NCBI GenBank assembly: GCA_016463095.1
Contig: JAEMSA010000002.1
Span: 1,502-65,501 of the forward strand
Direction: 5' to 3'
Length of the DNA stretch: 64,000 bases
DNA from: Candidatus Nanopelagicales bacterium
GTDB lineage: Bacteria > Actinomycetota > Actinomycetes > S36-B12 > UBA5976
In this document: positions 1-14,884 of the stretch, piece after piece
Position numbering within the stretch: position 1 is the first letter of the stretch
How the letters are laid out: the number at the start of each line of letters is the position of its first letter
Notes under the pieces: generated by a model
Told to the model about the DNA's origin: nothing
Seen by the model: only the letters and a program-made list of their open reading frames with translations
Database searches by the model: none
Made by a program: the position numbers and the translations under genes

Positions 1-110
1 TCTTTTTAATAACAGTTCATCAAAGGGAGTTGACAACACCGACACTATATAAGAGGCTATTTAAGACTAGTTGTAGGACAACTATTGACTAACAATTTAG
101 GGGTTCGACG

Positions 111-1142
111 ATGAGTGAAATTCGGGCTATTTCTTGGATTAACGATGGCCTTATCCTCATTGATCAAACCAAACTTCCTCACCAGGAAATTAATTTAAGT
201 ATTGAAACAGTTGACCAATTAGTCGAGGCAATAAAAAGTTTGGCGGTCCGTGGCGCACCTGCACTAGGAGCAGCGGGAGCTTGGGGAGTTGTAGTGGCTA
301 TGCGACAAGCCGCTAAAGAAAAATGGAGTAACGAAAAAAGAAATGAAGAATTTTTAAAAATTAGGAATGCTCGACCAACAGCAGTTAACTTGGCCTGGGG
401 AGTAGATAAAGTTTTACCATTTGTCACAAATGGGGTAGATGAAGTACTTGCCCAAGCAAACAGAATTGCAGCAGAAGATGAAGCTGGTAATAAACAAATG
501 GGTAAATTTGGTTCCAGTTGGATTGAAACAAAAGTAAAAAATAGACCAATACGTGCACTAACTCATTGCAATACCGGATCTTTAGCAACAACAACTTGGG
601 GAACAGCCTTAGGTGTTATTAGAGAAATGAACTCACGAGGAATTTTGAAACATGTTATTGCTGATGAAACAAGACCACTTCTGCAAGGTGGCAGATTAAC
701 TGCTTGGGAACTTTCTCACGACAATATTGAACATTTTGTTATTGCTGATGGCGCTGCCACAAGTATCATTGCTCGCGGTGAAATTGATGTTGCACTTATT
801 GGTGCAGACAGAGTTGCAGCTAATGGAGACACTGCAAATAAAATTGGTTCATTTGCAGTTGCCTTAGCCTGTAAGTACGCAGGAATACCTTTTGTAGTTG
901 TCGCCCCTGAATCAACAATTGATTTAAAAACTTTAACCGGAAAAGATATAGAAATTGAATATCGTGATGAAAATGAAATATTGAGTTTGAATGGGCAAAG
1001 AATATCTCCAGCAAAATCAAAAGGTCTAAATCCTGCTTTTGATGTGACTCCTGCCGAATTAATTTCAGCACTTGTTACCGAAAAAGGCGTTTATGAAATT
1101 TCAAATGGAGTAACTCCTGGTACAAAGTTAGCGAAAGTATAA
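111..1142 (+). CDS. mtnA: S-methyl-5-thioribose-1-phosphate isomerase (eIF-2B alpha/beta/delta-like family)
   Basis: 343-aa ORF. Blocks 'LILIDQTKLPH', 'VRGAPALGAAGAWG', 'HCNTGSLAT' and 'GADRVAANGDTANKIG' are typical of MtnA. Its stop overlaps the next start (TAATG at 1140-1144). Confidence 0.85.
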   Translation: MSEIRAISWINDGLILIDQTKLPHQEINLSIETVDQLVEAIKSLAVRGAPALGAAGAWGVVVAMRQAAKEKWSNEKRNEEFLKIRNARPTAVNLAWGVDKVLPFVTNGVDEVLAQANRIAAEDEAGNKQMGKFGSSWIETKVKNRPIRALTHCNTGSLATTTWGTALGVIREMNSRGILKHVIADETRPLLQGGRLTAWELSHDNIEHFVIADGAATSIIARGEIDVALIGADRVAANGDTANKIGSFAVALACKYAGIPFVVVAPESTIDLKTLTGKDIEIEYRDENEILSLNGQRISPAKSKGLNPAFDVTPAELISALVTEKGVYEISNGVTPGTKLAKV

Positions 1143-3133
1143 TGTCAAATATTCCAACTCCTTTAAAAGAATTAGTTGAGAGATCAAAATTCTTAGGCGC
1201 AAACCAAGATTATGTTGTTTATGGTGGAGGTAATACTTCTGCTAAAGGTGAAATCACTGATCATTTCAATAGAAATAAAAAAGTCTTATGGGTAAAAGGC
1301 TCAGGCGCAGACATGATGAATGCGGAAGCTGTTGATTATCCGGCTTTATACATGGATGAACTATTACAAATACTAAATTTTGAGAAATTAACTGATGAGG
1401 AAATGACTGATCTAGTTAGTAGAGCACTGGTGGACCCGGCAAGTAGACGACCATCAATTGAGACCTTGCTGCACGCATTCTTGCCTTTTAAGCACATAGA
1501 TCATGTTCACGCTGATGCTATTTGTGCATTAACCAATCACAAGAATGGTGAAAAAGCAGTTAAAGAGGCACTCGGAGAAAAATTTGCTTATGTTGATTGG
1601 ATCCGTCCAGGATTTGAATTAAGCAAACAAGCCTCATTTTTAAAAGATGCTGAAGGAATAATCTTGGCGCATCACGGACTGATTGTCTGGTCAGATAACA
1701 GCGATGAATGTAAACAAAAAAATCTTGATGTCATAAATAAAGTAGAGAAGTATTTAAGTTCACTTTCCAAAAGACCAGAATCAGTTTTCCAACACACAGA
1801 TTATAGCGATGAGGAATATAAGAATCTACTTTTACAAATACGAGGCAGACTTAACAAAAAAGGTAAGAAAATATTAAGTCTTGATAATAGATTGAAAGAA
1901 ATATCAAGTCGTAAAGACATAGCAGAAGTTCTAAGCGCAGGAGTTTCTAGCGCAGATCACATGTTGAGAATTAAACCTTGGTCTGCGGTACTGAGTGAAC
2001 CAAAAGATGGTGAGAAATCAATTAAGTCTATTGATAATTTTGCCAAGAAATATGAAAGCTATTTTGAATCAAATAAGAATTTATTGCCCGCTGGCTACTC
2101 AATTCATGATTCCGATCCAAGAGTTTTACTTATTCCAGACTTAGGCGCTGTGACCGTAGGCCAGTCATTGAATGAATGCAAAATGCATGCCGATATTTCG
2201 TTTCACACCCATAAAACTGCAGCTATGGCAAAAGATGCTTTTGGAAACGTTGAAGGACTTCCTGAATCAGAAATTTTTGGTTTCGATTACTGGCCAATGG
2301 AGCTTTACAAATTAGCGAGTAAACCAGCTGCAAAGAAATTTGCAGGAAACATTTTTATTGTTACCGGTGCAGCAAGTGGAATTGGATTAGGAATAGCACT
2401 CGAGTTAGCAAAACAAGGGGCAAGTCTTGTTCTGGCAGATTTAGATGAAAAAGCTTTAAGTAGCACTGTGGAGAAGATTAAAGAAGTTAAAGGTTTGAAA
2501 CCAGAAATTATTGCTGGTGATCAAGCTGATGAAAAAGTTGTTAATAAAACAGTTGATTTAGCAATCAAAACTTTTGGTGGAATAGATGGTGTTGTTTTGA
2601 GTGCAGGTATTGCGGTAACTGATCAGCTTAAAGATTTGACAGTTGAAAAATGGAACAAAGGTTTAGCAGTTAATTTAACTAGTGCATTTTTGATGACTAA
2701 AGCTGCTTTAAATGCTATGAAGATACAAAATTCGGGTGGATCACTTGTTTATATTGCAAGTAAAAATGCGTTTGCTCCAGGTGCAGGATTTGGTGGCTAC
2801 TCAGTAAGTAAAGCCGGAATGCTGCAATTAATGCGAATCGCAGCACTTGAAGGAGGAGTAAGCCAGATAAGGGCAAATGCCATAAATCCCGATGCTATTT
2901 TTGATAACAGCAAACTCTGGGAAGGAGGAATCAGGGAAGAGAGAGCAAAGGCTCATGGTGTTAAACCAGAAGAGTTAGAAGATTTTTATGCGCAAAGAAA
3001 TATTTTAAAGTCGCATGTAACTTCTAAAGATGTAGCCAATACCACTGCTTTTTTATTGTCTGATGAATCCGCCAGAACCACAGGTTCGGTCATCGCCGTC
3101 GACGGCGGCGTGGCTGCAGCATTTCCGCGCTAA
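1142..3133 (+). CDS. Bifunctional class II aldolase/adducin-domain protein fused to a short-chain dehydrogenase (RhaEW/YuxG-like aldolase/aldehyde dehydrogenase family)
   Basis: 663 aa. The N-terminal part has 'VVYGGGNTSAKG', 'WVKGSGADM' and the His cluster 'KHIDHVHAD' (class II aldolase metal site). The C-terminal SDR has 'VTGAASGIGLG' (TGxxxGxG) and 'YSVSKAG' (YxxxK). Confidence 0.8.
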   Translation: MSNIPTPLKELVERSKFLGANQDYVVYGGGNTSAKGEITDHFNRNKKVLWVKGSGADMMNAEAVDYPALYMDELLQILNFEKLTDEEMTDLVSRALVDPASRRPSIETLLHAFLPFKHIDHVHADAICALTNHKNGEKAVKEALGEKFAYVDWIRPGFELSKQASFLKDAEGIILAHHGLIVWSDNSDECKQKNLDVINKVEKYLSSLSKRPESVFQHTDYSDEEYKNLLLQIRGRLNKKGKKILSLDNRLKEISSRKDIAEVLSAGVSSADHMLRIKPWSAVLSEPKDGEKSIKSIDNFAKKYESYFESNKNLLPAGYSIHDSDPRVLLIPDLGAVTVGQSLNECKMHADISFHTHKTAAMAKDAFGNVEGLPESEIFGFDYWPMELYKLASKPAAKKFAGNIFIVTGAASGIGLGIALELAKQGASLVLADLDEKALSSTVEKIKEVKGLKPEIIAGDQADEKVVNKTVDLAIKTFGGIDGVVLSAGIAVTDQLKDLTVEKWNKGLAVNLTSAFLMTKAALNAMKIQNSGGSLVYIASKNAFAPGAGFGGYSVSKAGMLQLMRIAALEGGVSQIRANAINPDAIFDNSKLWEGGIREERAKAHGVKPEELEDFYAQRNILKSHVTSKDVANTTAFLLSDESARTTGSVIAVDGGVAAAFPR

Positions 3134-3142
3134 ACGGAAATG
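3120..3142 (+). promoter_or_regulatory. 8-bp stem hairpin spanning the stop codon of the aldolase/SDR gene (CATTTCCG-cgctaaa-CGGAAATG), no U-tract
   Basis: Perfect inverted repeat read directly from the sequence. A second 6-bp inverted repeat, AAGTGA(3152-3157)/TCACTT(3168-3173), follows. These could be an intra-operon attenuator, an mRNA-stability element or an operator. Confidence 0.25.
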
Positions 3143-3171
3143 AGTAATAGCAAGTGAGTTAAGTAATTCAC

Positions 3172-4284
3172 TTGGCAAAAGAAGGAGAAAGCATGATAAA
3201 GAACAAAGCATTAGCTGGAATCACAGTTGTTGCTGCGTTGCTTCTTGCTGCATGTTCACAAGGCAGTAGCGATACTGCTGCGACTGCAGATGAAGGAACA
3301 GTTGCAGAAGCGACCGGTCCCAAGCCAGCACCATTTGATGCTGGTCTAGTAAAAATAGCAATCGTACAAAACAGTGGCGCCGGTGACTATTTCCAACAAT
3401 GGACAAACGGAGCAAACAAGCAAGCAGAAGCAATTGGATTTGAAGTTCAAGTCTATGACGCCCAAGCTGACAATGCTAAGCAAGCTACTGACATGGAAAC
3501 AGCAATTGGTTCAGGCGTAGCTGGAATCATTGTTGACCACGGTCAAGCAGACACCATGTGTCCATTGATCAACAAAGCACTTGACGCAGGAATCCCTGTT
3601 GTTGTTTACGACGTTGCAACCGCTGAATGTGCACCAAAAGCTGTTACAACACAACAAAGCGATGCATCACTTGCACAAGTAGTCCTAGATCAAATGGCAG
3701 TAGATCTTGGTAAAGATGCCAAAGTTGGATACGTAAACGTATTAGGTATCGCACCTTTGGATCGTCGTCACGTTGTATGGGAAGCAATTGTTAAAGCTAA
3801 CAATTGGACCCAGTCCTTCTTCGTTGGTAAATTCACCAACTCAGTTGCAACTGATAACGCACAATTAGTTGACGCAGCACTTAAGAAGAGTCCAGACGTA
3901 GTGGGTATTTTTGCACCATACGATGAACTAACTAAGGGTACTGTTTCAGGAATTGAATCAAATAACCTTCAGGCTTCAATCAAGGCATACGGAATTGATA
4001 TTTCAAATGCTGATATTGAAATCATGACTAAAGATGGTTCACCATGGGTAGCAACAGCAGGTACTGATCCAAATGCGATCGGTGCAGCAGTTGTGCGAAA
4101 CATGGCACTTGAAATAGCAGGCCAATTGGGAGTTAAATCAGTTGATTTCCCAGGTGTTCTAATTACCGCACAGTTCCTAAAGGACAATGCAGTTAAGAAC
4201 ATGGTTGACTTGCGTGCCAAGTTGCCAGAATTGAACCTTGCATCTGTCAGCGGAGCTGACTGGATTCCTGCAGTTCAGTTCTAA
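3172..4284 (+). CDS. Sugar ABC transporter substrate-binding lipoprotein (periplasmic binding protein type I, ribose/CUT2-like)
   Basis: Signal peptide with lipobox 'LLLAAC'. The likely true start is ATG 3193, preceded by AAGGAG at 3182-3187. It lies directly upstream of the matching ATPase and permease. Confidence 0.75.
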   Translation: MAKEGESMIKNKALAGITVVAALLLAACSQGSSDTAATADEGTVAEATGPKPAPFDAGLVKIAIVQNSGAGDYFQQWTNGANKQAEAIGFEVQVYDAQADNAKQATDMETAIGSGVAGIIVDHGQADTMCPLINKALDAGIPVVVYDVATAECAPKAVTTQQSDASLAQVVLDQMAVDLGKDAKVGYVNVLGIAPLDRRHVVWEAIVKANNWTQSFFVGKFTNSVATDNAQLVDAALKKSPDVVGIFAPYDELTKGTVSGIESNNLQASIKAYGIDISNADIEIMTKDGSPWVATAGTDPNAIGAAVVRNMALEIAGQLGVKSVDFPGVLITAQFLKDNAVKNMVDLRAKLPELNLASVSGADWIPAVQF

Positions 4285-4309
4285 TTAATAAGTAGATGGA
4301 GGCGAGTTA

Positions 4310-5815
4310 ATGGTTTCAGCTGTTGAAGTTAGAAACATTTCAATGGCATTTGGTGCAAACCAAGTGTTAAGTGGAGTGGATTTAACAATCGACAAAGGAC
4401 AAACCACAGCATTGTTAGGAGCTAACGGTGCAGGTAAGTCCACATTAATTAAAATTTTGTCCGGTGTTTATTCATCTTTTACCGGAGAAATATTGATTGA
4501 TGGAAAAGTTGTTACCATTGACTCGCCAACTACTGCGAAATCAGCAGGTATTGAGACTGTTCATCAAAGAATTGATGAGGGAGTAATTCCCGGTTTAACA
4601 GTCGCTGAAAATTTATTGTTTGAAAAAATTGTCTCAGGAGAAATTCCAAGAGCGGTTTCTTTAAAAACAATTGTTAATGAAGCAGAAAAAATAGCTGAAG
4701 CTTTAGACCTAAATTGGAATAGATCCAAGCTACGAAATGATGTTTATGAATTAGGCATTGCTGAACAACAAATGCTGATCTTAGCCAGGACTCTTTCTAG
4801 GTCCCCCAAACTTTTAATTTTAGATGAACCAACTTCTGCTCTCTCTGTTGCTGAAAGTCAAAACTTATTTAGATTTATCAAGAATCTCGAAGCACAAGGA
4901 ATTGCTATTTTATATGTTTCTCACAAATTAAGTGAATTAGAACAAATTGCTAAGAAACTTGTTGTTATGCGAGATGGAAAGATTAGAAATGAACAAAGCG
5001 CACCGTTTTCATGGGATCTGGCTTTGAAAGAAATGTTAGGGCAACAAGAACTTGGCGAAAGAGATAATTTTAAACAGGTTCAAGGTACCAGTGTGACATT
5101 GAAATTAAATAATGTTCAATTGTTTAAGGAAAGTGCACCGTTGAATTTAGAAATAAAGAAAAAAGAAGTCACTGGAATTATTGGTCTGCTTGGTGCAGGT
5201 AAAACTGAACTTGCAAAAGTTATTTATGGGGCAGATGAATTAATTTCAGGCTCAATGGATCTTGAGGGACAATCATATAAACCAGCACATCCCGCAGATG
5301 CGGTTATAAAAGATATCTATTTAGTCCCAGAAGATCGTGCAGCAGATTCAATGATTCCAAATTGGAGTATTTCGCACACTGCAACTTTACCTTTTATGGG
5401 AGATTTTTCAGCTCGCGGAATAATTAAAAAACTTGCAGAAGGTATACGCGGTAAAGAACTTGTCCAAGATTTAAAAGTTGTGACAACTTCGCATGAAGCA
5501 TTTGTTGATTCCCTTTCTGGCGGAAATCAACAAAAAGTTATTGTGGGAAGATGGCTGCAATCAAAACCTAAATTAATGATTTTGGATGAACCATTTAGAG
5601 GTGTTGATATTGGAGCCAGAAGAGATATTTCTAAACGAGTGAGAGATTTAGCTGCCACAGATGTTGCAGTATTGGTGCTGGCTTCAGATGTAGATGAAAT
5701 TTTAGATGTTGCAGATCGAATTATTGTGCTAGTGGAAGGAAAAGTTGTAATGGATGTAAAAGCTGGGGAAACATCGAAAGACAAAATAGTAAACAAAATG
5801 TCGGAGGTGGCATAA
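4310..5815 (+). CDS. Sugar ABC transporter ATP-binding protein with tandem ABC cassettes (CUT2 type)
   Basis: 501 aa. Cassette 1 has Walker A 'GANGAGKST' and Walker B 'LLILDEPTS'. Cassette 2 has 'GLLGAGKTE', signature 'LSGGNQQK' and 'LMILDEPFRGVD'. Confidence 0.9.
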   Translation: MVSAVEVRNISMAFGANQVLSGVDLTIDKGQTTALLGANGAGKSTLIKILSGVYSSFTGEILIDGKVVTIDSPTTAKSAGIETVHQRIDEGVIPGLTVAENLLFEKIVSGEIPRAVSLKTIVNEAEKIAEALDLNWNRSKLRNDVYELGIAEQQMLILARTLSRSPKLLILDEPTSALSVAESQNLFRFIKNLEAQGIAILYVSHKLSELEQIAKKLVVMRDGKIRNEQSAPFSWDLALKEMLGQQELGERDNFKQVQGTSVTLKLNNVQLFKESAPLNLEIKKKEVTGIIGLLGAGKTELAKVIYGADELISGSMDLEGQSYKPAHPADAVIKDIYLVPEDRAADSMIPNWSISHTATLPFMGDFSARGIIKKLAEGIRGKELVQDLKVVTTSHEAFVDSLSGGNQQKVIVGRWLQSKPKLMILDEPFRGVDIGARRDISKRVRDLAATDVAVLVLASDVDEILDVADRIIVLVEGKVVMDVKAGETSKDKIVNKMSEVA

Positions 5816-6844
5816 ATGAATATCGGAAAATTAAATGCAACAAATGGATTTGACTTGAGAGATTTCATTGTCAAATACGGCTTTATTTTGGTGACAGTTA
5901 TTCTTTTTGTTTGGTTTGCTTCAACAGAGCCTACTTTTAGAATGCAAAACACTTTGTTTTCAATGCTTAAATTCACATCTGTTGTTGCAATTACCGGACT
6001 TGGTGTGACTTTAACAATGGTGGTGGGAGGTCTTGATCTTTCTGTTGGTGCAATTGCAGGATTATCAGTAACTCTTTCTGCAATGACAATGGTTATTTAT
6101 GCGCAAACAGGAGCCGTTGCCCTAGTAGTAGTACTACTGGGTGGTGCCTTAGTTGGACTATTTAATGCCTTTTTAATTGTGGTTTTAAAGATTCCAGATT
6201 TACTTGCAACCCTGGCAACGATGTTTACGATCATGGGATTAAAACTTGTTCCAGTTGATGGTCAATCAGTTTCTTCAGGTTTAATTTTAAGAGATGGAAG
6301 TGTGGCCCCAGGAAAATTCACTCCAGGATTCTTACTTATTGATCGTGCCTACCTTGGTCCCGTACCACTACCTGTGGCTATCTTTTTCTTTTTAGCATTT
6401 GTAGTTTGGATTTTCTTAACCAAAACTAGATGGGGCAGAGTTATGTATGCAATTGGCTCAAACCCAGAAGCTGCAAGATTAGCTGGCGTTCGTGTTCAAA
6501 GATACCGAGCTCTTGCTTATGCACTCTCAGGTGTTTTTGCCTCAATTGGTGGCTTGATTCTTTCGTCAAGAATTGGGCAAGGAGATATCAGTGCCGGAAA
6601 CTCTCTGTTGCTAGATGCTGTGGCTGTTTCCTTGGTTGGAACTTCAGTTTTGGGTATGGCAAGACCAAACGCATGGGGTACAACTCTTGGCGCAGTTTTA
6701 ATCGGCATAGTAATCACTGGATTAACAATTAAAGGTTTTCCATATTATGCCCAAGATGTGGTTAAGGGACTTGTCTTATTAACCGCTTTGATATTCTCGT
6801 TTACACTTTCTAGACGAAAGTCTAGATTTGTGCCGGCGGTTTAA
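5816..6844 (+). CDS. Sugar ABC transporter permease (RbsC/AraH-like)
   Basis: 342 aa and highly hydrophobic, with a multi-TM profile. Its ATG immediately follows the ATPase stop (TAAATG). Confidence 0.8.
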   Translation: MNIGKLNATNGFDLRDFIVKYGFILVTVILFVWFASTEPTFRMQNTLFSMLKFTSVVAITGLGVTLTMVVGGLDLSVGAIAGLSVTLSAMTMVIYAQTGAVALVVVLLGGALVGLFNAFLIVVLKIPDLLATLATMFTIMGLKLVPVDGQSVSSGLILRDGSVAPGKFTPGFLLIDRAYLGPVPLPVAIFFFLAFVVWIFLTKTRWGRVMYAIGSNPEAARLAGVRVQRYRALAYALSGVFASIGGLILSSRIGQGDISAGNSLLLDAVAVSLVGTSVLGMARPNAWGTTLGAVLIGIVITGLTIKGFPYYAQDVVKGLVLLTALIFSFTLSRRKSRFVPAV

Positions 6845-6855
6845 AGGAAAGAAAA

Positions 6856-8082
6856 ATGACTGATCAATACGAGTTTTTAACAAAAGATAATATTTCAAAA
6901 TATTTATCAAGCAAAAAAGTATTTGCCAACTTAATTGATGCCAACAGCCTTGTTGAATTCAAAGAAGTTGGTGACGGAAACCTCAATTTAGTTTTCATTA
7001 TGAAGGACTCTGCAGGCAAAGGAATAGTTTTAAAACAAGCTTTGCCATATGTGCGCTTAGTGGGACCTGATTGGCCTATGACTCCAACCAGAGCCAGAAT
7101 CGAAGCCGAAACCACAATTATTCATGCCAAATATGCTCAAGATCTTGTTCCAGAAATTTATGATTATGATCCAGAACGTTTCATTATTGCGATGGAAGAT
7201 TTATCTGATCATGTTGTTTGGCGCGGAGCATTAAATTTAGGTTTAAGATTTGATGGTGTAGCCGGGCCCTTAGGCAAATATGTTGCCAATACAGCTTTTG
7301 GTACTTCCGTTTTTAGTTTGGGACAAGAACAACACAAATTAGAAATAGCCAGGGCAATAAATCCAGGTCTTTGTTTAATCACAGAAGACTTAGTTTTTAC
7401 TGAACCTTATTTTGAAAACGGTAGAAACTCAGTGCTACCAAGCAATGAAAAAGATGCTCAAGAACTTGCTAACGATAAAGACATGGTCCACGAAATTGGT
7501 TTATTAAAATACAAGTTCATGACAGCTGGTGAATCACTTATTCACGGAGATCTTCATACCGGATCTGCCATGATCAAATGTGAAGATAAAAAAGTAGCTG
7601 AAAGTGTGAAAGCAATAGATTCTGAGTTCTCATTTTATGGACCGATTGGTTTTGATCTTGGCGCACTTGTTGCTAACTACACAATTGCTGCTGCTAGAGC
7701 TTGTGCACTAGGAAATGTTGAACAAATGCATTGGGCCTTAAGCCTTGGGGAACAGACTTGGGTTGCATTCGAAAAAGAATTCAGGAAACTATGGCCAACC
7801 CGAGTTGATAAAAGAGTTTTCACAGATCAACTTTTAGAAGACTTAATTAAAACTTGGAGAGAAGATACCTTAGGTTATGCAGGGGCAAAGATGGCTCGAA
7901 GAATAGTTGGACTGGCAAAAACCTCAGATATCGAAACCCTTGAACCAAATGTACGCGAAGGTGCAGCACGAGCAGTTTTATTAATTGCTAGAAAAACTAC
8001 GAAAGAAAGAGCACAAGATAAGTCTTGGGCAACACTTGCTAAAGAAGCAGCAGAAATTATCCAAAAAACAGTAACTAAATAA
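6856..8082 (+). CDS. mtnK: S-methyl-5-thioribose kinase
   Basis: 408 aa. 'EVGDGNLNLVF' is the nucleotide-binding loop typical of MtnK. 'LIHGDLHTGS' is the APH-type catalytic loop. Confidence 0.85.
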   Translation: MTDQYEFLTKDNISKYLSSKKVFANLIDANSLVEFKEVGDGNLNLVFIMKDSAGKGIVLKQALPYVRLVGPDWPMTPTRARIEAETTIIHAKYAQDLVPEIYDYDPERFIIAMEDLSDHVVWRGALNLGLRFDGVAGPLGKYVANTAFGTSVFSLGQEQHKLEIARAINPGLCLITEDLVFTEPYFENGRNSVLPSNEKDAQELANDKDMVHEIGLLKYKFMTAGESLIHGDLHTGSAMIKCEDKKVAESVKAIDSEFSFYGPIGFDLGALVANYTIAAARACALGNVEQMHWALSLGEQTWVAFEKEFRKLWPTRVDKRVFTDQLLEDLIKTWREDTLGYAGAKMARRIVGLAKTSDIETLEPNVREGAARAVLLIARKTTKERAQDKSWATLAKEAAEIIQKTVTK

Positions 8083-8090
8083 GGAAAAAT

Positions 8091-8450
8091 TTGAAAACAC
8101 CTAGAGAAATTGCCGAGTCATACTGGAAAGCAGAATGCGCCAGGGACACAAAAGCTGTGTTAGAGCACTATCACTCCGATGCAACTTTTTGCCCACCTGG
8201 AGAAAAATTAGTTGGACATGATCAAATTAGAACTTTTTATGATGCCTCAGGGGAAGCATTTCCTGGTTTAAAAGTTGATATTTTGCATGAAGTAAGAAAT
8301 GGTGATGAAAGTTGTATTGAATGGTATGCAACTCTAACCGATAAAGCAGGAAATGTTTTTAATATTCCTGGAGTAAACGTAATTAAAATAAGAGACGGAA
8401 AATTTGAATCTGTACACGCATACTTTGATCCAACAGTGCTAAAAGGCTAA
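8091..8450 (+). CDS. NTF2-fold / SnoaL-like protein of unknown function
   Basis: 119 aa with a TTG start. The pattern 'YWKAECARD..AVLEHYHSDATF' and the small alpha+beta size are typical of SnoaL/ketosteroid-isomerase-like proteins. It is the last gene of the mtnK operon. Confidence 0.5.
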   Translation: MKTPREIAESYWKAECARDTKAVLEHYHSDATFCPPGEKLVGHDQIRTFYDASGEAFPGLKVDILHEVRNGDESCIEWYATLTDKAGNVFNIPGVNVIKIRDGKFESVHAYFDPTVLKG

Positions 8451-9550
8451 TTTTCTAAACTGTCCACAAAAGTTCTTAAGCCTTTAGCGTTTTCTAAAAG
8501 ATTACCTCGGTGCAGTGCCCCACCTATTAGTAAGAATGTGTCCATCCCAAAAAAGTTTGCAATTTCTGGAATTCTGTCAATCGTCATGCCCCCACCAGGA
8601 GAAGGAAAAATTGTCTTAATATTTCCTAATTTAGAACGACAGGCATTAGCAATATTTGTGCATTCATCTTTTGAGAAACTAAATCTGCCACCAAAGTTAG
8701 GGAAAACACTTATATCTGCACCACTTAAACGCATCAAGGTTGCCAGAATTATTTCATGGTTTAAACCATGATTGCTATTCATTACATGGGATCCTAAATT
8801 TGAAGGATGACTCATGATGGGCAGTGAAACCTCTTGGCTATCTGCAATCATTCTCATGGTGTCGAATCCAGCTACTCCGGGCAGAACCATTAGCGCACCA
8901 CTACCTAATTTTCGAGCAGTAATAGCAGCTTCTAACATTTGTTCTGCTGGTCGATTAATGCTTGGTGCATAAACAGATTTTCTATTAAATTTTTGGTTTG
9001 CTTCTACAACTGCACTTGAAATTACTTTCACCCGCTCATTCCATTTAGCCCACGGCTGATTAGCCAAACTATGATCATCTTTTATTAAATCAATTCCTGC
9101 CTCAACCATAACTGTGGCAATACTTGCTAACTCAGTTGAATTTAATCCCATTGGTTTTAGCGCTGTAGCTAAAATGGGACGTTTTTTTGCTCCCAATAAT
9201 TCTCTAACTCCACTTATGCCAAAACGTGGTCCTTTTAAAGTGTTTAAAAAGTCATCAGGGAATTCAACTTTTGTCACTTTCACATCAGGAAACATTGAAA
9301 CATTTCCCCACACCACATTTAACATCTGACCTATTTCATAGCCTGTGGTGTCAGTATTGAAATCTATTACAACTTCTGTCTGGGAATTTCCAATTTCTTT
9401 GGATGAAACCACTTGACCAACAACTTCTTTTTGAATCCATTCGGGAGCCAGATCAAAGGGAAATTCAATAGTCTGCTCAACCCTGATTGCTTCAGTTACT
9501 TCTTTACTGGTTTTTGTATTAAGACGATAAGTAATCTGAATTGAAGACAT
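8447..9550 (-). CDS. RuBisCO-like protein (form IV RuBisCO large-subunit homologue, not a carboxylase)
   Basis: 367 aa. By-eye alignment to the RuBisCO large chain gives 'WGNVSMF' (N123 region), 'RPILATALKPMGLNS' (K175 loop), 'GIDLIKDDHSLANQPW' (K201/D203 motif, with His at the E204 position), 'PSPGGGM' and 'LLIGGALH'. There is no small-subunit or prk gene nearby. Confidence 0.8.
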   Translation of the reverse strand: MSSIQITYRLNTKTSKEVTEAIRVEQTIEFPFDLAPEWIQKEVVGQVVSSKEIGNSQTEVVIDFNTDTTGYEIGQMLNVVWGNVSMFPDVKVTKVEFPDDFLNTLKGPRFGISGVRELLGAKKRPILATALKPMGLNSTELASIATVMVEAGIDLIKDDHSLANQPWAKWNERVKVISSAVVEANQKFNRKSVYAPSINRPAEQMLEAAITARKLGSGALMVLPGVAGFDTMRMIADSQEVSLPIMSHPSNLGSHVMNSNHGLNHEIILATLMRLSGADISVFPNFGGRFSFSKDECTNIANACRSKLGNIKTIFPSPGGGMTIDRIPEIANFFGMDTFLLIGGALHRGNLLENAKGLRTFVDSLEN

Positions 9551-9555
9551 ACTTA

Positions 9556-10569
9556 CTACAAAGCCTCAGCTTTTGCAGTGCTATGCACATCAATCACTCT
9601 GGTTTGAGAAAGTTCTTCTTCAGATATTTTTAAGTTTTTATCCATTAGTTTTTCGGTGGCTTCAATTAAGTTACGAGCACTCATTCCATATTTATGCAAC
9701 AGATATTTTTGAGATGCTCCATGAGCGTAAGTATCTTTCAAACCAATTTTGATCAGTTTTTTACCAATCCCGTGTTCAGCAATTAAATCTGCAACAGCAC
9801 TTCCTAAACCACCAATCACACTGTGGTTTTCCATGGTGATAACTCCGTATTTACTTGATTTAAGACTTTCAATTACCCGAGGATCGGTGAAAGGTTTCAA
9901 AGTTGAAATGTGTAAATGTTGCACACTTACGCCATGTTCTTGAAGTGCAGGGATTGCTCTTAAAGCTTCTTCAGTTGATATTCCAGAACTTAAAACTGTG
10001 ACATCTGTTCCTGTGCTCAAAATACGAGCAGTGTTAAATTCCATGACCTCATTTTTTGGAAAAATCCTCGAGATTTCACCTCGCAGCATTCTGATATAGA
10101 CCGGACCATCTACTTCATGGGCCACATCTAGAACTGATTCGACTTCTGTGGCATCCCCAGTTTCTAGAATTGTCATGTTTGGGATTCCTCGCAAAACATT
10201 GACATCATCAATTGCTTGATGGGTAACTCCTCCAGGAGTTGTGATGCCGGGCAAAAAACCGACCATTCTCACCCGCAGATTTGGGTAGGCCACCGACATT
10301 TCAAGTTGATCAAGTGGTCTGCGATAAATAAATACTGCAAATGTGTGAATCCAAGGCTCAAAACCTTCACGGGCTAAACCGCCTGCAAAACCTAACATGT
10401 TTTGTTCACCTAAGCCGAAAGAAAAGAATCTTTCTGGGAAAGTGTCTCTAAATTTTCCAACTTCACAAGAACTGGTTAAGTCTGCTGATAAAACTACAAC
10501 TTCGGGTTTGAATTTACTCCAGCGCACAAAATTTTCAACGTGAGGTCTTTTAACAATTTCGTAAGCCAT
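9556..10569 (-). CDS. Transketolase, C-terminal (pyrimidine-binding + C-terminal domain) subunit
   Basis: 337 aa. 'FSFGLGEQNMLGFAGGLAREGFEPWIHTFAVF' is typical of the TK Pyr domain. It lies 1 nt after the N-terminal subunit gene. Confidence 0.85.
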   Translation of the reverse strand: MAYEIVKRPHVENFVRWSKFKPEVVVLSADLTSSCEVGKFRDTFPERFFSFGLGEQNMLGFAGGLAREGFEPWIHTFAVFIYRRPLDQLEMSVAYPNLRVRMVGFLPGITTPGGVTHQAIDDVNVLRGIPNMTILETGDATEVESVLDVAHEVDGPVYIRMLRGEISRIFPKNEVMEFNTARILSTGTDVTVLSSGISTEEALRAIPALQEHGVSVQHLHISTLKPFTDPRVIESLKSSKYGVITMENHSVIGGLGSAVADLIAEHGIGKKLIKIGLKDTYAHGASQKYLLHKYGMSARNLIEATEKLMDKNLKISEEELSQTRVIDVHSTAKAEAL

Positions 10570-10570
10570 T

Positions 10571-11491
10571 CTATTTCCAAGCTTTCAAAAAATTATTGTA
10601 TTTAATTTTTTCAAAAGGATTAGCAAATCTGACGTAATGCAGAGCATCAGGTCTATCTTTCAAAATTTCAATTCCTTTAGCTGGATCTGTGTAACCTAGA
10701 ATTACTTTTGGTTTATCTTGGAATGTTGAACCTGCAGCTAATATTTGGTTTATGTCGTTGCCGTCAATTTTTTCAACGTCCCAACCAAAGCTTTTTATTC
10801 TTTCAGTTAGAGGCTCAATTGACATAACTTTTTCCATGGGACCATCTACTTGGTTTCTGTTAACATCTACGATTACTCGAACATTACTTAAATTATGAAA
10901 ACTTATTGCAGCTAAAGCTTCCCAAGTTTGTCCTTCTTGAAATTCTCCATCTGACATAAAAATCCAAGTCTTTCCTGATTCACCGCGCAACTTTCTAGCT
11001 AAAGCAACGCCCCCTGCTTGGGAAAGAGCCTGGGAAAGAGATCCAGTTGTGGTTTCAAATCCTGGTGAATGTTCAGCACCAATCATTTCCACAGTCGTAC
11101 CATCTTTATTAAATTTCTCTAAAGACTTTTCAGTTAATCTTCCGGTTTCAATTAGGGCCGCATAAATAACAAGTGCGTAATGGGCGGGGCTTATGAATAA
11201 ACGATCTAGTGCTGGACCTTTTTCGCCATGAAATTCTGCACCGGTTATATATTCAGTGAAATTTTTACTGGGCACATTGACAAAATCACGAGGTTCTAGT
11301 GGGGAAGCTAAGGGAGCAAGATTGACGAGTTTTGTGTATAGGCAAGAAAGAATTTCTGCAGCAGAACAGGCTTGGCTTAAATATCCGCCATTGTTTTTGA
11401 CGGTGTGCTCAAGTACTCGATGGCGAATGCCATGGGCCATAGAGGCTATTTGGTCAATATCTGTTTGTGTCGATGCTTTAGTTATGCTCAT
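10571..11491 (-). CDS. Transketolase, N-terminal (ThDP pyrophosphate-binding) subunit
   Basis: 306 aa. The ThDP motif is 'SDGEFQEGQTWEA...VDVNRNQVDG'. 'SPAHYALVIYAAL' is also present. Confidence 0.85.
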   Translation of the reverse strand: MSITKASTQTDIDQIASMAHGIRHRVLEHTVKNNGGYLSQACSAAEILSCLYTKLVNLAPLASPLEPRDFVNVPSKNFTEYITGAEFHGEKGPALDRLFISPAHYALVIYAALIETGRLTEKSLEKFNKDGTTVEMIGAEHSPGFETTTGSLSQALSQAGGVALARKLRGESGKTWIFMSDGEFQEGQTWEALAAISFHNLSNVRVIVDVNRNQVDGPMEKVMSIEPLTERIKSFGWDVEKIDGNDINQILAAGSTFQDKPKVILGYTDPAKGIEILKDRPDALHYVRFANPFEKIKYNNFLKAWK

Positions 11492-11542
11492 TTCGCTTCA
11501 GCATAGCAAAGAGAATAGTTGTCCTACAAGTTAAATTCTCAA

Positions 11543-11572
11543 CAAAAAAGCCCCCGTAAATTTCCCGGGGGC
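11543..11572 (-). terminator. Intrinsic terminator downstream of the whiB3-like gene
   Basis: On the - strand, GCCCCCG (11572-11566) pairs with CGGGGGC (11556-11550). A run of six U follows (A-run 11544-11549 on +), 35 nt after the stop. Confidence 0.7.
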
Positions 11573-11606
11573 ATTCTTGTTTGGAGGGTATTACAGATAA
11601 AAGTTT

Positions 11607-11906
11607 CTAGCCAGCGACTGGAAATGTTTCCTTGGCTGGGGCATAGATGGCTTCTCGATCATCTTCACTCATCGCACCCCACACACCGTAAGGTTCACGC
11701 ACAGCTAAGGCATGTTCAGCACATTGGCGAAGCACAGGGCAGGTGGCACAAATCGATTTAGCCAGCGAAATCCTATTTTCGCGGGAAGGTCCACGTTCAC
11801 CCTCAGGATGAAAGAAGATCTCAGGATCTTCTCCACGGCATGCTCCCTTTAACTGCCAGTCCCATAGATCAGAGTTGGGTCCAGGAAGACGGGTCACATC
11901 AGCCAT
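11607..11906 (-). CDS. whiB3: WhiB-family [4Fe-4S] transcription factor, WhiB3/WhiD-like
   Basis: 99 aa. 'LPGPNSDLWDWQLKGACRG', 'FFHPEGERG', 'CATCPVLRQC' and 'PYGVWGAMSE' match the WhiB3/WhiD N-terminal pattern, the four Cys and the G[VI]WGG turn. Confidence 0.85.
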   Translation of the reverse strand: MADVTRLPGPNSDLWDWQLKGACRGEDPEIFFHPEGERGPSRENRISLAKSICATCPVLRQCAEHALAVREPYGVWGAMSEDDREAIYAPAKETFPVAG

Positions 11907-11936
11907 GATTTTCCTTTTTTGAGGGGGTATGTCCTA

Positions 11937-11966
11937 AATATAGAATACTATTCATAACTTGGTCAA
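11937..11966 (-). promoter_or_regulatory. Candidate sigma-70-type promoter of the whiB3-like gene (-35 TTGACC, 18-nt spacer, -10 TATATT)
   Basis: Read on the - strand: TTGACC is the complement of 11961-11966 and TATATT is the complement of 11937-11942. An 11-bp palindrome GAATAcTATTC (11943-11953) sits inside the spacer. Confidence 0.4.
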
Positions 11967-12024
11967 TCGTTCAGACAGGTCCGCTCTTGTGAAGTCCGTC
12001 TCATAGCAATACGATGAGCCAAAG

Positions 12025-13044
12025 TTGTTCAACCACAACAGATTTGGCCAAATGAGCGTAGAAAGTGTTGCCCAAGAGTCGGTAGGCCTGACCGTGGCCG
12101 TTGTGGCCAGACGCGTGGGGGTTGCTCCAGCCACACTTCGCACCTGGGAAAGACGCTATGGAATTTATCCCACCGATAGATCAAGTGGGGGACATCGCCG
12201 CTACTCCATAACCGATGTTGCTCGGTTGGAATTAATGCGCAGGTTAGTTTTATCTGGAATGCCAGCAGGTCAAGCTGCCAAGATGGCCTTGCAATCAGAA
12301 ATTGGCAAACTTGAGGATTCATCATTTTTTGATTCCAACGTTTTAACTAAAACTGTTGATTCACTGTTAAGCAATATTTCTGTTGATTCAGAATTTAGTC
12401 ATCCCGGTGGTGGCGCTGTATTAGCAATGCAAGGATCTTCTGCGATTGCTCGCGGATTAGCTAAAGCTGCCTACTCACTTGATGCACCTGCTTGTACTCA
12501 ATTGATTCAAAACAGTTTGCATGCCAAGGGTGTTAGTTGGACTTGGGAGAAGTTGTTATCTCCAGTAATTTGTGCGCTTGGTAAGAAGTGGGAATCCTCC
12601 GGACAAGGAATTGAAGCCGAACATATTTTATCGGAATGTATCATTGGCCAATTGAAACAAATATCTGATCAATTAATTGCCCCAATAAATATAAGACCAG
12701 TGTTACTTGCTGCCGCAGCAGACGAGTTACACACTATTCCTCAATATGTGGTGGCAGCAGCGTTAGCTGAAAGAAAAATTGGTAGTAGATCACTTGGTGC
12801 AAGAGTTCCGCACGATTCTTTATTAAATGCCATAAAAAGATTAGCCCCCGCTGCTGTTTTAATCTGGGCACAAATTCCTGTGAAAACTATTCCTGTGGAA
12901 TATGAAATTTTAATTAACTCTCGACCAGCTCCACTACTGTTGATGGTTGGCCCTGGCTGGCCTGAAAATTTACCGCATGGTTTCACAAGAGCTGGAGATT
13001 TAAACTCCACCATTACAGCGATCAGTAATGCCTTGGGACAGTAA
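12025..13044 (+). CDS. MerR-family regulator with a CarH/LitR-type cobalamin-binding module (candidate B12-dependent light sensor)
   Basis: The N-terminal MerR HTH is 'LTVAVVARRVGVAPATLRTWERRYG...GGHRRYS'. The helical-bundle motif 'W189-ESSGQGIEA-E199-H200' is an exact Wx9EH. The Rossmann-like part 'VLLAAAADELHTIP...GARVPHDSLLNAIKRLAPAAVLIW' resembles the DxHxxG B12-binding domain. The start is either TTG 12025 or ATG 12052. Confidence 0.65.
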   Translation: MFNHNRFGQMSVESVAQESVGLTVAVVARRVGVAPATLRTWERRYGIYPTDRSSGGHRRYSITDVARLELMRRLVLSGMPAGQAAKMALQSEIGKLEDSSFFDSNVLTKTVDSLLSNISVDSEFSHPGGGAVLAMQGSSAIARGLAKAAYSLDAPACTQLIQNSLHAKGVSWTWEKLLSPVICALGKKWESSGQGIEAEHILSECIIGQLKQISDQLIAPINIRPVLLAAAADELHTIPQYVVAAALAERKIGSRSLGARVPHDSLLNAIKRLAPAAVLIWAQIPVKTIPVEYEILINSRPAPLLLMVGPGWPENLPHGFTRAGDLNSTITAISNALGQ

Positions 13045-13093
13045 CAAGTAATAAGAATTAGGGAAACTTTATTACTCTCACTAACGTCTTAAG

Positions 13094-13693
13094 TTGGTGA
13101 TGAAAACCCTAATTTGTGACACTAGCTTTAGAGCAACCAAATTATTAGAAAAAATTCTTGTTAAATTACCCCAAATATCTGAAATAGTCGTAGCCCACGA
13201 ATTAGTCGAAGTTAAAAAAGTATTGAAGGCAAATAAAATTCAGGTGGTCTTTTTAAGTTTAGATTTTGCTCAAGTGATTAATAAAAAAACCTTGCTCGAC
13301 TTATTTGGAAAAGTTCCAGTTATTTTGTTGCTGCAGCCTCGGGTGAAACCATTTTTTTCACCCGAAATCCTGCTCATTTCAGATGGAATTGTGCTCAATA
13401 ACGCCACAGATCTGGAGTTTCAGATCGTGTTGGCAGCCCTAAAAATAGATTTGGGACAAAAAATAGTTGAATCTAAATTAATCAAACCCAAAGGCAATTC
13501 CCCCTTTCTCACCAATCGAGAAATGCAGATTTTGCACTATCTATCTGTAGGCAAAAGCAATCTGAGGATTGCCCAAGAACTCAAAATTGCAGTACCCACG
13601 GTTAAAACCCATGTGCGCAAAATTTTGCTGAAGCTAAATGCCACAAATCGCACCCATGGGGTGGCCCAAGGTATTCGCTGGAGCCTTATTTAG
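13094..13693 (+). CDS. LuxR/NarL-type DNA-binding protein with an atypical receiver-like N-terminal domain (orphan response regulator)
   Basis: The C-terminal HTH is 'LTNREMQILHYLSVGKSNLRIAQELKIAVPTVKTHVRKILLKLNA'. The N-terminal part has 'LICDTS' in place of the usual acidic pair. No kinase gene is adjacent. The likely start is ATG 13100. Confidence 0.65.
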   Translation: MVMKTLICDTSFRATKLLEKILVKLPQISEIVVAHELVEVKKVLKANKIQVVFLSLDFAQVINKKTLLDLFGKVPVILLLQPRVKPFFSPEILLISDGIVLNNATDLEFQIVLAALKIDLGQKIVESKLIKPKGNSPFLTNREMQILHYLSVGKSNLRIAQELKIAVPTVKTHVRKILLKLNATNRTHGVAQGIRWSLI

Positions 13694-13765
13694 GGGCGAA
13701 TATTTTGAAGTTTCAGGGTTATGTAAGTCAGAGGAAATCCGGTACTCAAGATAGGCTCTCTCATT

Positions 13766-14884
13766 GTGACTGAAATTGAAATTGGTGGCACCAAGCGTGG
13801 TCGAATCGCATACTCATTCGACGACATTGCCCTAGTCCCCACCAGAAGAACCAGAAATCCTGAAGATGTTTCCACAAATTGGAAAATAGACGCCTACGAT
13901 TTTGCATTCCCCATTGTTGCTGCCCCCATGGATTCAGTTGTTTCCCCTGAAGTTGCGATTAGCTATGGCCAACTAGGCGGTTTAGCTGTTTTAGATTTAG
14001 AAGGCTTGTGGACTCGTTATGAAGATCCTCAAAGTGAATTTAAGAAAATAGCCAAATCGAATTCGAATTCAGCTATTGAACTTTTACAACAAATTTATGC
14101 AGCACCGATAAAACCAGAACTTATTAAAGAGCGCATTAAACAAATTAAGTCTGCTGGAGCTGTGGCTGCAGCATCGCTTTCACCGCGAGCTGTTGTGAAA
14201 CATTTCAAATCAGTGGTGGAAGCAGGCATTGACATATTTGTGATCCGGGGATCCACAGTAAGTGCTGAACATGTTTCAACAGGTGATGAACCATTAAATT
14301 TGAAAAAATTTATTTACGAACTTGATGTGCCGGTAATTGTTGGTGGATGTGCATCTCATCAAGCAGGTTTGCATTTAATGAGAACTGGGGCAGCAGGAGT
14401 ATTAGTTGGATTTGGTGGCGGTGCGGCACATACCAGTGCTGATGTTCTAGGTGTTCGTGTCCCAATGGCAACTGCTGTAGCTGATGTTGCAGCAGCTCGA
14501 AGAGAATATTTAGATGAATCTGAAGGAAGATATGTGCACGTAATTGCTGATGGTTCAGTTGGCAAGAGTGGTGACATTAGTAAAGCAATTGCCATGGGTG
14601 CAGATGCAGTGATGATTGGTTCAGCTCTAGCAAGATCAAGTAGCGCACCTGGTGGTGGAAAACATTGGGGATCAGAAGCAGTACACCAAGATTTACCTCG
14701 CGGACAAGTTGTGGAATTAGGGGTAAGCGGAACTTTAGAACAAATTTTGTTTGGACCTTCAACCAATGCTGCTGGCACACTTAATTTGGTGGGAGCTTTG
14801 AAAAAAGCTATGGCCACAACTGGTTATAGCGATTTGAAAGAATTACAGAGAATAGAAGTTGTTGTAAATTCTGTTAAAAATTAA
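13766..14884 (+). CDS. guaB3: GuaB3-type IMP dehydrogenase-related protein (no CBS insert)
   Basis: 372 aa with a GTG start. 'YSFDDIALVP', 'IVAAPMDSV' and 'VIADGSVGKSGDISKAIAMGADAVMIGS' fit the IMPDH/GMPR TIM barrel. Its position near whiB3 matches mycobacteria. Confidence 0.75.
   Translation: MTEIEIGGTKRGRIAYSFDDIALVPTRRTRNPEDVSTNWKIDAYDFAFPIVAAPMDSVVSPEVAISYGQLGGLAVLDLEGLWTRYEDPQSEFKKIAKSNSNSAIELLQQIYAAPIKPELIKERIKQIKSAGAVAAASLSPRAVVKHFKSVVEAGIDIFVIRGSTVSAEHVSTGDEPLNLKKFIYELDVPVIVGGCASHQAGLHLMRTGAAGVLVGFGGGAAHTSADVLGVRVPMATAVADVAAARREYLDESEGRYVHVIADGSVGKSGDISKAIAMGADAVMIGSALARSSSAPGGGKHWGSEAVHQDLPRGQVVELGVSGTLEQILFGPSTNAAGTLNLVGALKKAMATTGYSDLKELQRIEVVVNSVKN

Follow-up and report, generated by a model that had tools for sequence, protein, structure and literature searches.

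We analysed a 64,000-nucleotide (nt) stretch of contig JAEMSA010000002.1 from a Candidatus Nanopelagicales bacterium (hereafter the window) and found that it encodes a MerR-type regulator related to the vitamin B12-dependent photoreceptors CarH and LitR, placed back to back with a whiB3-type gene for a WhiB-like (Wbl) regulator. The residues that face the cofactor in CarH are conserved among divergent relatives of the regulator, the divergent gene pair is itself conserved, and a 27-bp element over the whiB3 promoter strictly co-occurs with the regulator gene. We propose, tentatively and with somewhat less than an even chance of being right, that the protein is a corrinoid-dependent, light-releasable CarH/LitR-type repressor of whiB3 and of its own gene; light or B12 supply may control whiB3.

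The regulator is a relative of CarH and LitR

The gene encodes a genuine CarH/LitR relative (coordinates of all features are collected in Table 1). The original prediction, made from the letters of the window alone, had placed it in this family, and the assignment is backed by sequence, profile and predicted fold. The N-terminal MerR helix-turn-helix domain matched Pfam MerR_1 with an E-value of 1.7e-14. The W-x9-E-H motif is exact, with TGG at 12589-12591 for W and GAA CAT at 12619-12624 for E-H, as is E-L-H-T-I-P, encoded by GAG TTA CAC ACT ATT CCT (12724-12741). The best match among PDB sequences was Thermus thermophilus CarH (TtCarH, also called TtLitR; 5c8d; phmmer E 5e-17), with both domains aligned. 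Here W189, E199, H200 and H236, numbered from an upstream TTG codon as in the original prediction, align on W131, E141, H142 and H177 of TtCarH; numbers counted from the ATG at 12052 are lower by 9, and the axial His236 becomes His227. A profile of 24 family members retrieved TtCarH (E 8e-25), the CtMerR photoreceptor of Chloracidobacterium thermophilum (1e-14) and photocobilins (about 1e-6). The AlphaFold model has a mean predicted local distance difference test (pLDDT) score of 82.9, rising to about 90 through the C-terminal domain, and consists of a winged helix and a long linker followed by a four-helix bundle and an alpha/beta module of five strands. In Foldseek searches against the PDB, the top 12 matches were full-length TtCarH chains (E 1e-13 to 1e-11), and the isolated B12 domain gave a template modelling (TM) score of 0.77-0.80 to TtCarH.

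The window protein shares its three-part architecture with TtCarH (PDB 5C8D/5C8E/5C8F) and with class I LitR/CarH proteins, represented in our comparison by Myxococcus CarH, Bacillus megaterium CarH and Streptomyces LitR. Identity with TtCarH is only 22-25%. The Arg176/Asp201 pair that forms the dimer salt bridge of TtCarH is replaced by Leu and Arg, and the Gly160 found at its tetramer interface is not conserved. Unlike TtCarH and the class I proteins, the window family carries a linker of about 45 residues with a G-G-G motif between the DNA-binding and B12-like domains; it has no counterpart in TtCarH and is modelled with pLDDT below 50. Its G-G-G-x-V motif is nearly invariant, and G119 and G121 are conserved in at least 90% of sequences. 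Invariant or nearly so across the family alignments are also the wing G-G-H-R-R-Y and the recognition helix R-T-W-E-R-R-Y, which corresponds to the CarH DNA-recognition motif RxWERRY (PMC9304148).

Searches with profiles of the B12-binding domains, a check suggested with the original prediction, gave sub-threshold matches: B12-binding_2 (PF02607) and B12-binding (PF02310) both match the window protein, but both stay under their gathering scores. Most relatives at 45-50% identity do carry Pfam hits for both domains. Some members are already labelled 'light-induced transcriptional regulator' by annotation pipelines, and broad LitR/CarH membership is therefore not new.

Cofactor-facing residues are conserved and the tail side departs from CarH as a family

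A search with the C-terminal 206 residues against 1.84 billion cluster representatives returned 1202 relatives, 630 of them at E<=1e-10 and 121 at E<=1e-30. Conservation was counted in the best 150 representatives (50%-identity clusters), which are 32-73% identical to the query. The G of GxxW is present in 134/150, and the W, E and H of Wx9EH in 132/150, 147/150 and 149/150, respectively. The axial His is kept in 147/150 and the Pro after the His motif in 139/150, while the G and P of GxxxP occur in 148/150 and 149/150. In 116 full-length homologues the W, E, H and H residues are likewise invariant or nearly so. As judged from these alignments, the cofactor-facing residues are under strong selection.

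The family has its own signature, W-x9-E-H ... (E/D)-x-H-x2-P-x41-(W/Y/F)-(A/S)-Q-x24-(G/A)-G-P-G-W, which retains the exact spacing of the classical motif (P-x41-W; Q-x24-(V)G). The motif of the CarH laboratory reads D/ExHx2G/P-x41-SxT/V-x22-27-GG and so allows P (PMC9304148). In the window protein, its first part is present as E-L-H-T-I-P, with the His on H177 of TtCarH. The x41 spacing to SxT/V is exact, and the residues there are W-A-Q and depart from the motif. The GG site reads V-G at a spacing of 24 residues, inside the x22-27 range. The differences from class I proteins, namely an aromatic residue for Ser, Gln for T/V and P-G-W after GG, belong to the family as a whole: the motif-Ser position holds W in 120, Y in 16, F in 7, H in 3 and S in 1 of the 150 sequences, the GG site has G (99) or A (40) first and G (145) second, and it is followed by P (117), G (145) and W (145). 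The original prediction had taken the G-to-P change and 'IWAQ' as leaving B12 binding in doubt. Neither now reads as a lesion, as P falls within the published CarH motif and Ala stands at that position in CtMerR as crystallised with adenosylcobalamin, while an aromatic residue replaces the motif Ser in 146/150 relatives; both features are invariant in the 116 full-length homologues. A decaying pseudo-receptor was rejected, since the G-to-P and S-to-W changes are shared by 150 divergent relatives and P is in the published motif.

The signature that SignatureFinder uses for adenosylcobalamin (AdoCbl) photoreceptors consists of GxxW, EH, GxxH and GxxxP, in which the Gly of GxxH supplies a main-chain carbonyl (PMC11796333). 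Three of the four are present in the window protein as G-K-K-W, E-H and G-A-R-V-P, and GxxH reads D-E-L-H. The first position of GxxH is variable in the family (G 37, D 39, E 38 of 150), and TtCarH differs from the window protein in having this Gly and in having His132, where the window protein has Glu. CtMerR (PDB 8JBS/8JBT), a confirmed AdoCbl photoreceptor found by SignatureFinder (PMC11796333), is an informative comparison. It shares the MerR plus B12-domain architecture, has Ala rather than Gly at DxHxxG and Arg at the His132 position, and still binds AdoCbl and responds to light, so that such deviations are tolerated. CtMerR differs from the window family in keeping GxxH and S-A-T and in having another genomic partner.

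In the MetH structure the motif Ser contacts the dimethylbenzimidazole tail, and we take the motif Ser and GG positions to line the nucleotide-tail pocket, as in MetH and the mutases. If these pocket positions are right, the adenosyl face of the family would be canonical and its tail pocket remodelled.

These changes bear on two other readings of the domain. The first is that the regulator works without B12 and uses its CarH-like domain for oligomerisation or for sensing something else, namely a different tetrapyrrole, a partner protein or a redox signal. Regulation of whiB3 would be compatible with this reading too. The sub-threshold Pfam B12 domains, the missing Gly of GxxH, and the aromatic residue and added Trp, which may fill the tail pocket if we have its positions right, would fit such a protein. 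There are precedents as well. LitR classes II-V function without B12, class II consisting of the four-helix bundle only (PMC9758184), and CarA of Myxococcus xanthus is a B12-independent CarH paralogue that has lost the Trp of Wx9EH and its flanks (PMC9304148). CarA demonstrates that a CarH-like fold can serve as a repressor scaffold without B12, and the class II proteins PplR and PmlR2 of Pseudomonas, with a LitR/CarH-type DNA-binding domain, belong to a light-linked regulon without sensing B12 directly. Neither loss is seen here, however: the window family keeps Trp, Glu and His in the proportions given above, in contrast to CarA, and the window protein has a predicted full Rossmann module (pLDDT 84-96), in contrast to class II LitR. 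Wx9EH, the axial His, GxxxP and the x41 and x22-27 spacings are all kept over 150 divergent relatives, a pattern not easily accounted for unless a cofactor occupies the canonical place, and most relatives at 45-50% identity reach PF02607 and PF02310 hits. We regard a B12-independent regulator as unlikely.

The second reading accepts corrinoid binding and removes light: the protein would sense B12 supply or the form of the corrinoid, as a protein counterpart of the cobalamin riboswitch, with a remodelled tail pocket that selects a non-standard lower ligand. The changes of the family cluster near the presumed nucleotide-tail pocket while the adenosyl side stays canonical, and the Rfam search of the window found no cobalamin riboswitch and no other RNA family. 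Nanopelagicales are mostly B12 auxotrophs, and a few of them salvage cobinamide (PMC12817590). Against this, Wx9EH is the adenosyl cap that gives CarH its specificity for light-labile AdoCbl (PMC9304148). A DNA binder that depends on AdoCbl is always light-sensitive, and the two signals are therefore not easily separated. Besides, the family is common in soil Pseudonocardiales too, and nothing obvious connects whiB3 with B12 metabolism. A sensor of B12 supply alone appears rather improbable.

The divergent pair with whiB3 is conserved

To our proposal of a corrinoid- and light-dependent repressor, the neighbouring gene adds a candidate target. The original prediction had described it as whiB3-like, and this was borne out: its best solved relative is Mycobacterium tuberculosis WhiB3 (8cwr; E 8e-33), compared with 4e-17 for WhiB1, 1e-10 for WhiB, 2.5e-8 for WhiB4 and 3e-7 for WhiB7. 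Like the WhiB3/WhiD group (class III Wbl), it has four Cys and a G-V-W-G turn, and the invariant Cys and E-P-Y-G-x-W-G were also observed. The gene and the open reading frame (ORF) of the regulator are divergent and separated by a 145-bp intergenic region.

We scanned one genome per GTDB species. At least 432 genomes carry a relative of the regulator, and the best 80 were taken; the locus sets comprised 81 loci for gene pairing, 82 for a second copy of the element described below and 83 intergenic regions for operator analysis. The best 80 genomes all belong to Actinomycetota and include Nanopelagicales, Motilibacter, Saccharothrix, Lentzea, Pseudonocardia, Actinosynnema, Umezawaea, Actinophytocola and Goodfellowiella, as well as Frankiales, Jiangellales and Mycobacteriales metagenome-assembled genomes (MAGs). 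In 79/81 loci the next gene upstream is WhiB3-like and runs on the opposite strand, and one of the two exceptions is a 1.7-kb contig whose upstream sequence is too short. Loci with the pair span Nanopelagicales, Pseudonocardiales, Frankiales and Jiangellales. The divergent whiB3 was also present in all six of six further loci from the clade of the window, in which the outer neighbours vary (transketolase with a RuBisCO-like gene, a cupin gene, or an aldolase-short-chain dehydrogenase/reductase (SDR) gene) and the pair stays intact. In distant members the pair sits in a larger block, groES-groEL-whiB3 <-> CarH-like-(TPR)-BldM-like response regulator ... guaB-guaB3.

The original prediction had suggested a light or B12 input into a WhiB-centred node in a planktonic actinobacterium. 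The input itself gains from these data, because a deeply conserved divergent pair with a shared cis-element makes it the most economical reading; the restriction to planktonic bacteria falls away, as soil Pseudonocardiales, Frankiales and Jiangellales have members of the family as well. Our literature search found no paper linking whiB, whiD or whiB3 with CarH, LitR or a B12-binding MerR protein, and neither a Wbl review nor a 100-genome developmental survey mentions a CarH-like neighbour. The family is apparently an undescribed, large actinobacterial subfamily; its distinct signature, its size, the near-constant pairing with whiB3 and the co-occurring element set it apart from known CarH/LitR proteins.

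Public MAG records named 'Bifidobacterium breve' or 'Rubrivirga sp.' (L002 CAMATO010000057.1, L027 CAMCSO010000065.1 and L023) carry a Nanopelagicales-type locus and are probably mislabelled or mis-binned. An exact-sequence look-up found no identical public-assembly record for the window protein.

A promoter element co-occurs with the regulator gene

The whiB3 promoter matches the sigma-70-type consensus at 10/12 positions and is the top match of this type in 11500-13800. Over 78 distinct loci the conservation includes both the hexamers and the sequence of the spacer, which is 17-18 nt long; conservation of spacer sequence is unusual. By anchoring 80 intergenic regions on their best shared word, we obtained a 27-bp element with the position weight matrix (PWM) consensus CTTGACCAACTTATGACGCGGTTTTAA in the whiB3 direction. 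It is conserved across orders, from genomes of 39% GC to GC-rich ones, with a median distance of 60 bp to the start of whiB3 and distances of 49-363 bp to that of the regulator. In the 64-kb window the whiB3 promoter site is the sole strong PWM match (16.3 bits); a search of the same window for a wider regulon gave a next match of 12.0 bits, within the range of shuffled controls.

In 24/82 loci, against 0.6 expected, the 15-bp core recurs as a second copy at quantised positions. Throughout the clade of the window it is direct and lies at +65 or +66, whereas in about 20 loci it is inverted at exactly +22, where it forms the TTGAACA -35 hexamer of the regulator. The copy in the window (12019-12033) is nearly invariant in the clade alignment. 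Both hexamers of the putative regulator promoter are conserved in the 7-sequence clade alignment, and the promoter falls below the threshold of the promoter scan.

The core copy encloses TTG 12025-12027, which bears on the start codon. The ORF of the regulator can be read from TTG 12025 (339 aa), as the original prediction had done, or from ATG 12052 (330 aa). The TTG start was rejected, because all close homologues (P0001-P0010; 330 aa) begin with MS/MA... at ATG 12052, 9 codons later (MSVESV... in the window protein), and because the stretch around TTG 12025 is conserved at the DNA level and not as protein in the 7-sequence alignment. Since the TTG sits within the conserved non-coding element 12019-12033, it is probably not the start.

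An imperfect inverted repeat of 12 nt (83% complementary, 7-nt gap) spans 12018-12048, GCCAAAGTTGTT / AACAGATTTGGC, and ends just before the ATG; its outer GCCAA...TTGGC arms also occur in L002 and L084. We read it as a possible leader hairpin or a possible part of the operator. Relatives have a Shine-Dalgarno-like GGGAGA, which this leader in the window lacks.

If the element were general to whiB3 promoters, it would also occur without the CarH-like gene. We therefore picked 80 metagenomic loci solely by similarity to M. tuberculosis WhiB3 and scored the PWM over 350 nt upstream of each whiB3. Where a full-length CarH-like gene is divergently upstream, the element is present in 5/5 loci (17.6-34.3 bits); where at least 1.3 kb of upstream sequence holds no MerR-like gene, it is present in 0/53 (maximum 7.7 bits, median -7.0). 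The association of element and gene is strong, with shared ancestry uncorrected in these counts. Two further loci, whose contigs end too near whiB3, score 15.8 and 18.7 bits, and one of them (L159) holds the first 30 residues of a CarH-like protein at the contig edge. Two loci with one partner missing were also found. L154 encodes a 128-aa MerR-like ORF without a B12-like domain (75-461, minus strand) beside a divergent WhiD-like gene (whiB3 at 556); its recognition helix is degraded to APSTLRGWERR, the 27-bp element is absent, and by sequence the ORF looks like a relic of a CarH-like gene. L055, the one genome locus without whiB3, still has an element-like GTAGATTGTGCAAG before the regulator gene.

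These observations also limit a third reading, in which synteny is merely inherited, the element is bound by another factor and the CarH-like protein acts on itself, on downstream or on distant genes. Distant relatives are syntenic over an ancient groESL-whiB3-...-bldM-guaB2-guaB3 block, so conservation of the neighbourhood is by itself weak evidence. The element is anchored to whiB3 rather than to the regulator, as its distances show, and only 24/82 loci have the second copy. On the other side stand the co-occurrence counts of 5/5 and 0/53, the loss of the element in L154, where only a relic of the DNA-binding domain is left, its retention in L055, and the change of outer neighbours in the clade of the window around an intact pair. 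In our estimation there is little probability that the regulator has no link to whiB3.

Eight loci without the CarH-like gene (L107, L112, L114, L117, L119, L124, L129 and L136) have a different sequence in common, GGTTAACAnTTnnTGG...GTTA(C), about 310-320 nt upstream of whiB3, where another regulator may bind in these lineages.

Proposed mechanism and its weaknesses

Under the proposal of a light-releasable repressor, an adenosyl-corrinoid would be held between the four-helix bundle and the Rossmann module, with Wx9EH capping the adenosyl group and His227 (His236 in TTG numbering) as the lower ligand. In the dark, the corrinoid form would keep the protein as a DNA-binding oligomer that occupies the 27-bp element over the -35 and spacer of whiB3. 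The same oligomer would also sit on the copy on its own side, at about +1 in the window and inverted over the -35 in other clades, and the nearly invariant RxWERRY helix would be matched to a nearly invariant DNA element. The protein would leave the DNA when light breaks the Co-C bond or when B12 is lacking, and whiB3 and the regulator gene would then be switched on, possibly together with the BldM-like gene downstream. MerR-type activators act on over-long spacers of 19-20 nt; repression is likelier than activation here because the spacer of whiB3 is of normal length. As there is no equivalent of His132, no bis-His light state is expected, a parallel to CtMerR. Nanopelagicales are mostly unable to make B12 and import it, and a few salvage cobinamide (PMC12817590); the switch would thus respond to light as well as to the supply of corrinoid.

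The proposed site overlaps a promoter in a divergent intergenic region, as it does in Thermus for TtCarH. The operators of CarH-type proteins consist of three or four tandem 11-bp repeats (nnnnTnnACAn) that overlap the promoter (PMC9304148). In contrast to class I proteins, the operator proposed for the window has no clear array of this kind. TGAACA-N5-TGAACA pairs do occur, and the consensus of the element carries TGAC twice, 11 bp apart. We do not claim a canonical CarH operator, because enrichment at 11 bp is limited to 7/83 loci. A MerR-type dyad in the whiB3 spacer was sought by inspection of the consensus, and none was convincing.

Several results weigh against the proposed repressor. 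The window protein scores 21.2 bits with PF02607 (gathering score 23), 18.1 bits with PF02310 (gathering score 32.1) and 77.8 with the CarH equivalog NF052513 of NCBIfam (cut-off 400). In the cofactor site Trp and Gln replace the Ser and the T/V of SxT/V, the Gly of GxxH is Asp, and the position of His132 in TtCarH, which makes the bis-His light state, is Glu. TnnACA-like pairs at 11 bp were seen in 7/83 intergenic regions, with a mean of 1.2 and a maximum of 5 in shuffled sequences. The co-occurrence test lacks a correction for shared ancestry, and Nanopelagicales are mostly without B12 synthesis (PMC12817590). Finally, no carotenoid, photolyase or sigma-factor genes lie nearby among ORFs of at least 120 aa in the 64 kb. 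The usual genomic link of CarH/LitR, to carotenoid (crt) genes or to the extracytoplasmic function (ECF) sigma factor gene litS, is thus replaced by whiB3, which separates the window regulator from class I proteins. The odd residues of the site are not decay, because they are kept across 150 divergent relatives.

Other features of the window

The original prediction had also noted a LuxR-type gene downstream and the absence of crt and sigma-factor genes, and both statements hold. Rhodopsin, photolyase and B12 genes are likewise absent among ORFs of at least 120 aa over the whole 64 kb, and a tRNA scan of the window gave no match. The LuxR gene is homologous over its full length to a Response_reg+GerE gene of L001 (E 7e-18); we take both to be BldM-like atypical response regulators. 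In the receiver domain of the window gene, the region of the phospho-acceptor Asp is deleted or altered. The gene is downstream of the regulator in L002, L003 and L084 and absent in L082, and it may be co-transcribed with the CarH-like gene. Two adjoining AT-rich hairpins lie between the CarH-like stop and the LuxR start (13047-13100; minimum free energy -13.9 kcal/mol, z -2.47 against shuffles); they have no T-run and therefore form no typical terminator. A GuaB3-type gene (TIGR01304, E 2.5e-163) follows the LuxR ORF.

Table 1. Features of the whiB3-regulator locus in the window.
Feature	Position	Strand	Basis or remark
whiB3/whiD-type Wbl gene, 99 aa; proposed target	11607..11906	-	Pfam Whib E 1.7e-25
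whiB3 promoter: -35 TTGACC, 18-nt spacer, -10 TATATT	-35 11966-11961; -10 11942-11937	-	best sigma-70-type match
27-bp element TAGAATACTATTCATAACTTGGTCAAT; proposed operator	11941..11967		covers whiB3 -35, spacer and edge of -10
Putative promoter of CarH-like gene: TTGTGA, 17 nt, TACGAT	11987..12015	+	weak consensus match
Second, direct copy of 15-bp core, CCAAAGTTGTTCAAC	12019..12033		CarH-like leader, ~+1 of putative promoter; 17 bits
CarH/LitR-like regulator gene, 330 aa	12052..13044, stop codon included	+	homologue starts; TtCarH match
MerR-type winged-helix DNA-binding domain; R-T-W-E-R-R-Y helix and wing G-G-H-R-R-Y	12091..12288	+	MerR_1
G-G-G motif in interdomain linker	12406-12414 (linker 12295-12441)	+	~87% in 116 homologues
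Four-helix bundle (B12-binding_2-like) with G-K-K-W (GxxW) and W-x9-E-H	12442..12669	+	helices 131-206, pLDDT ~90
Rossmann-like module	12700..13032	+	beta/alpha pattern, pLDDT 84-96; Foldseek TM 0.77-0.80
Motifs of Rossmann-like module	E-L-H-T-I-P 12724-12741; G-A-R-V-P (GxxxP); V-G-P-G-W 12946-12960 (Trp303 in ATG numbering)	+
Trp at motif-Ser position (Trp272 in ATG numbering)	TGG 12865-12867	+
LuxR/GerE regulator, degenerate receiver domain	13100..13693 (199-aa ORF 13094-13693)	+	GerE E 1.6e-16

The remainder of the window encodes core metabolism plus mtrA-mtrB-lpqB. The latter module (57372-61320) comprises Response_reg/Trans_reg_C, HAMP-HisKA-HATPase and LpqB-like lipoprotein genes and is followed by a ribosome hibernation factor gene, an ordinary actinobacterial core synteny. 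A cluster at 111-11491 encodes an IF-2B/MtnA-like isomerase, an aldolase_II-SDR fusion, a sugar ABC transporter (binding protein, ATPase and permease), an APH-like kinase, a RuBisCO-like protein (form IV type) and a split transketolase, and looks like a sugar or methylthio-sugar catabolic pathway around the RuBisCO-like protein. Parts of it recur beside the whiB3 pair in L082, L084 and L086.

Implications for Wbl regulation and B12-based photoreceptors

To our knowledge, the control of Wbl regulators beyond a few model species is largely unknown, and a light and/or B12 switch before whiB3 would give the field a concrete upstream signal. A broader version of the proposal is that WhiB3/WhiD transcription is gated directly by a B12-based photoreceptor across much of Actinomycetes (Nanopelagicales, Pseudonocardiales, Frankiales, Jiangellales and some Mycobacteriales MAGs), with a new mode of holding the corrinoid tail through the aromatic residue in place of Ser and the G-P-G-W motif. 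We consider this version possible but doubtful. If it is true, the Wbl network would take light and the external supply of corrinoid as primary inputs, and the remodelled tail pocket would possibly select a corrinoid with a lower ligand other than dimethylbenzimidazole.

With its adenosyl-side signature intact and the Ser-to-aromatic change and P-G-W present in at least 121 clusters (50% identity), the family is a natural experiment on the cofactor site. Many of its members would escape both the published signature, with its GxxH requirement, and the Pfam thresholds, and the family could widen the sequence rules for mining green-light photoreceptors for optogenetics. The acI/Nanopelagicales lineage comprises the most abundant freshwater bacterioplankton, which are streamlined B12 auxotrophs with rhodopsins and few regulators. 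If the proposal is true, these bacteria would gain a dedicated transcriptional photosensor besides their rhodopsins.

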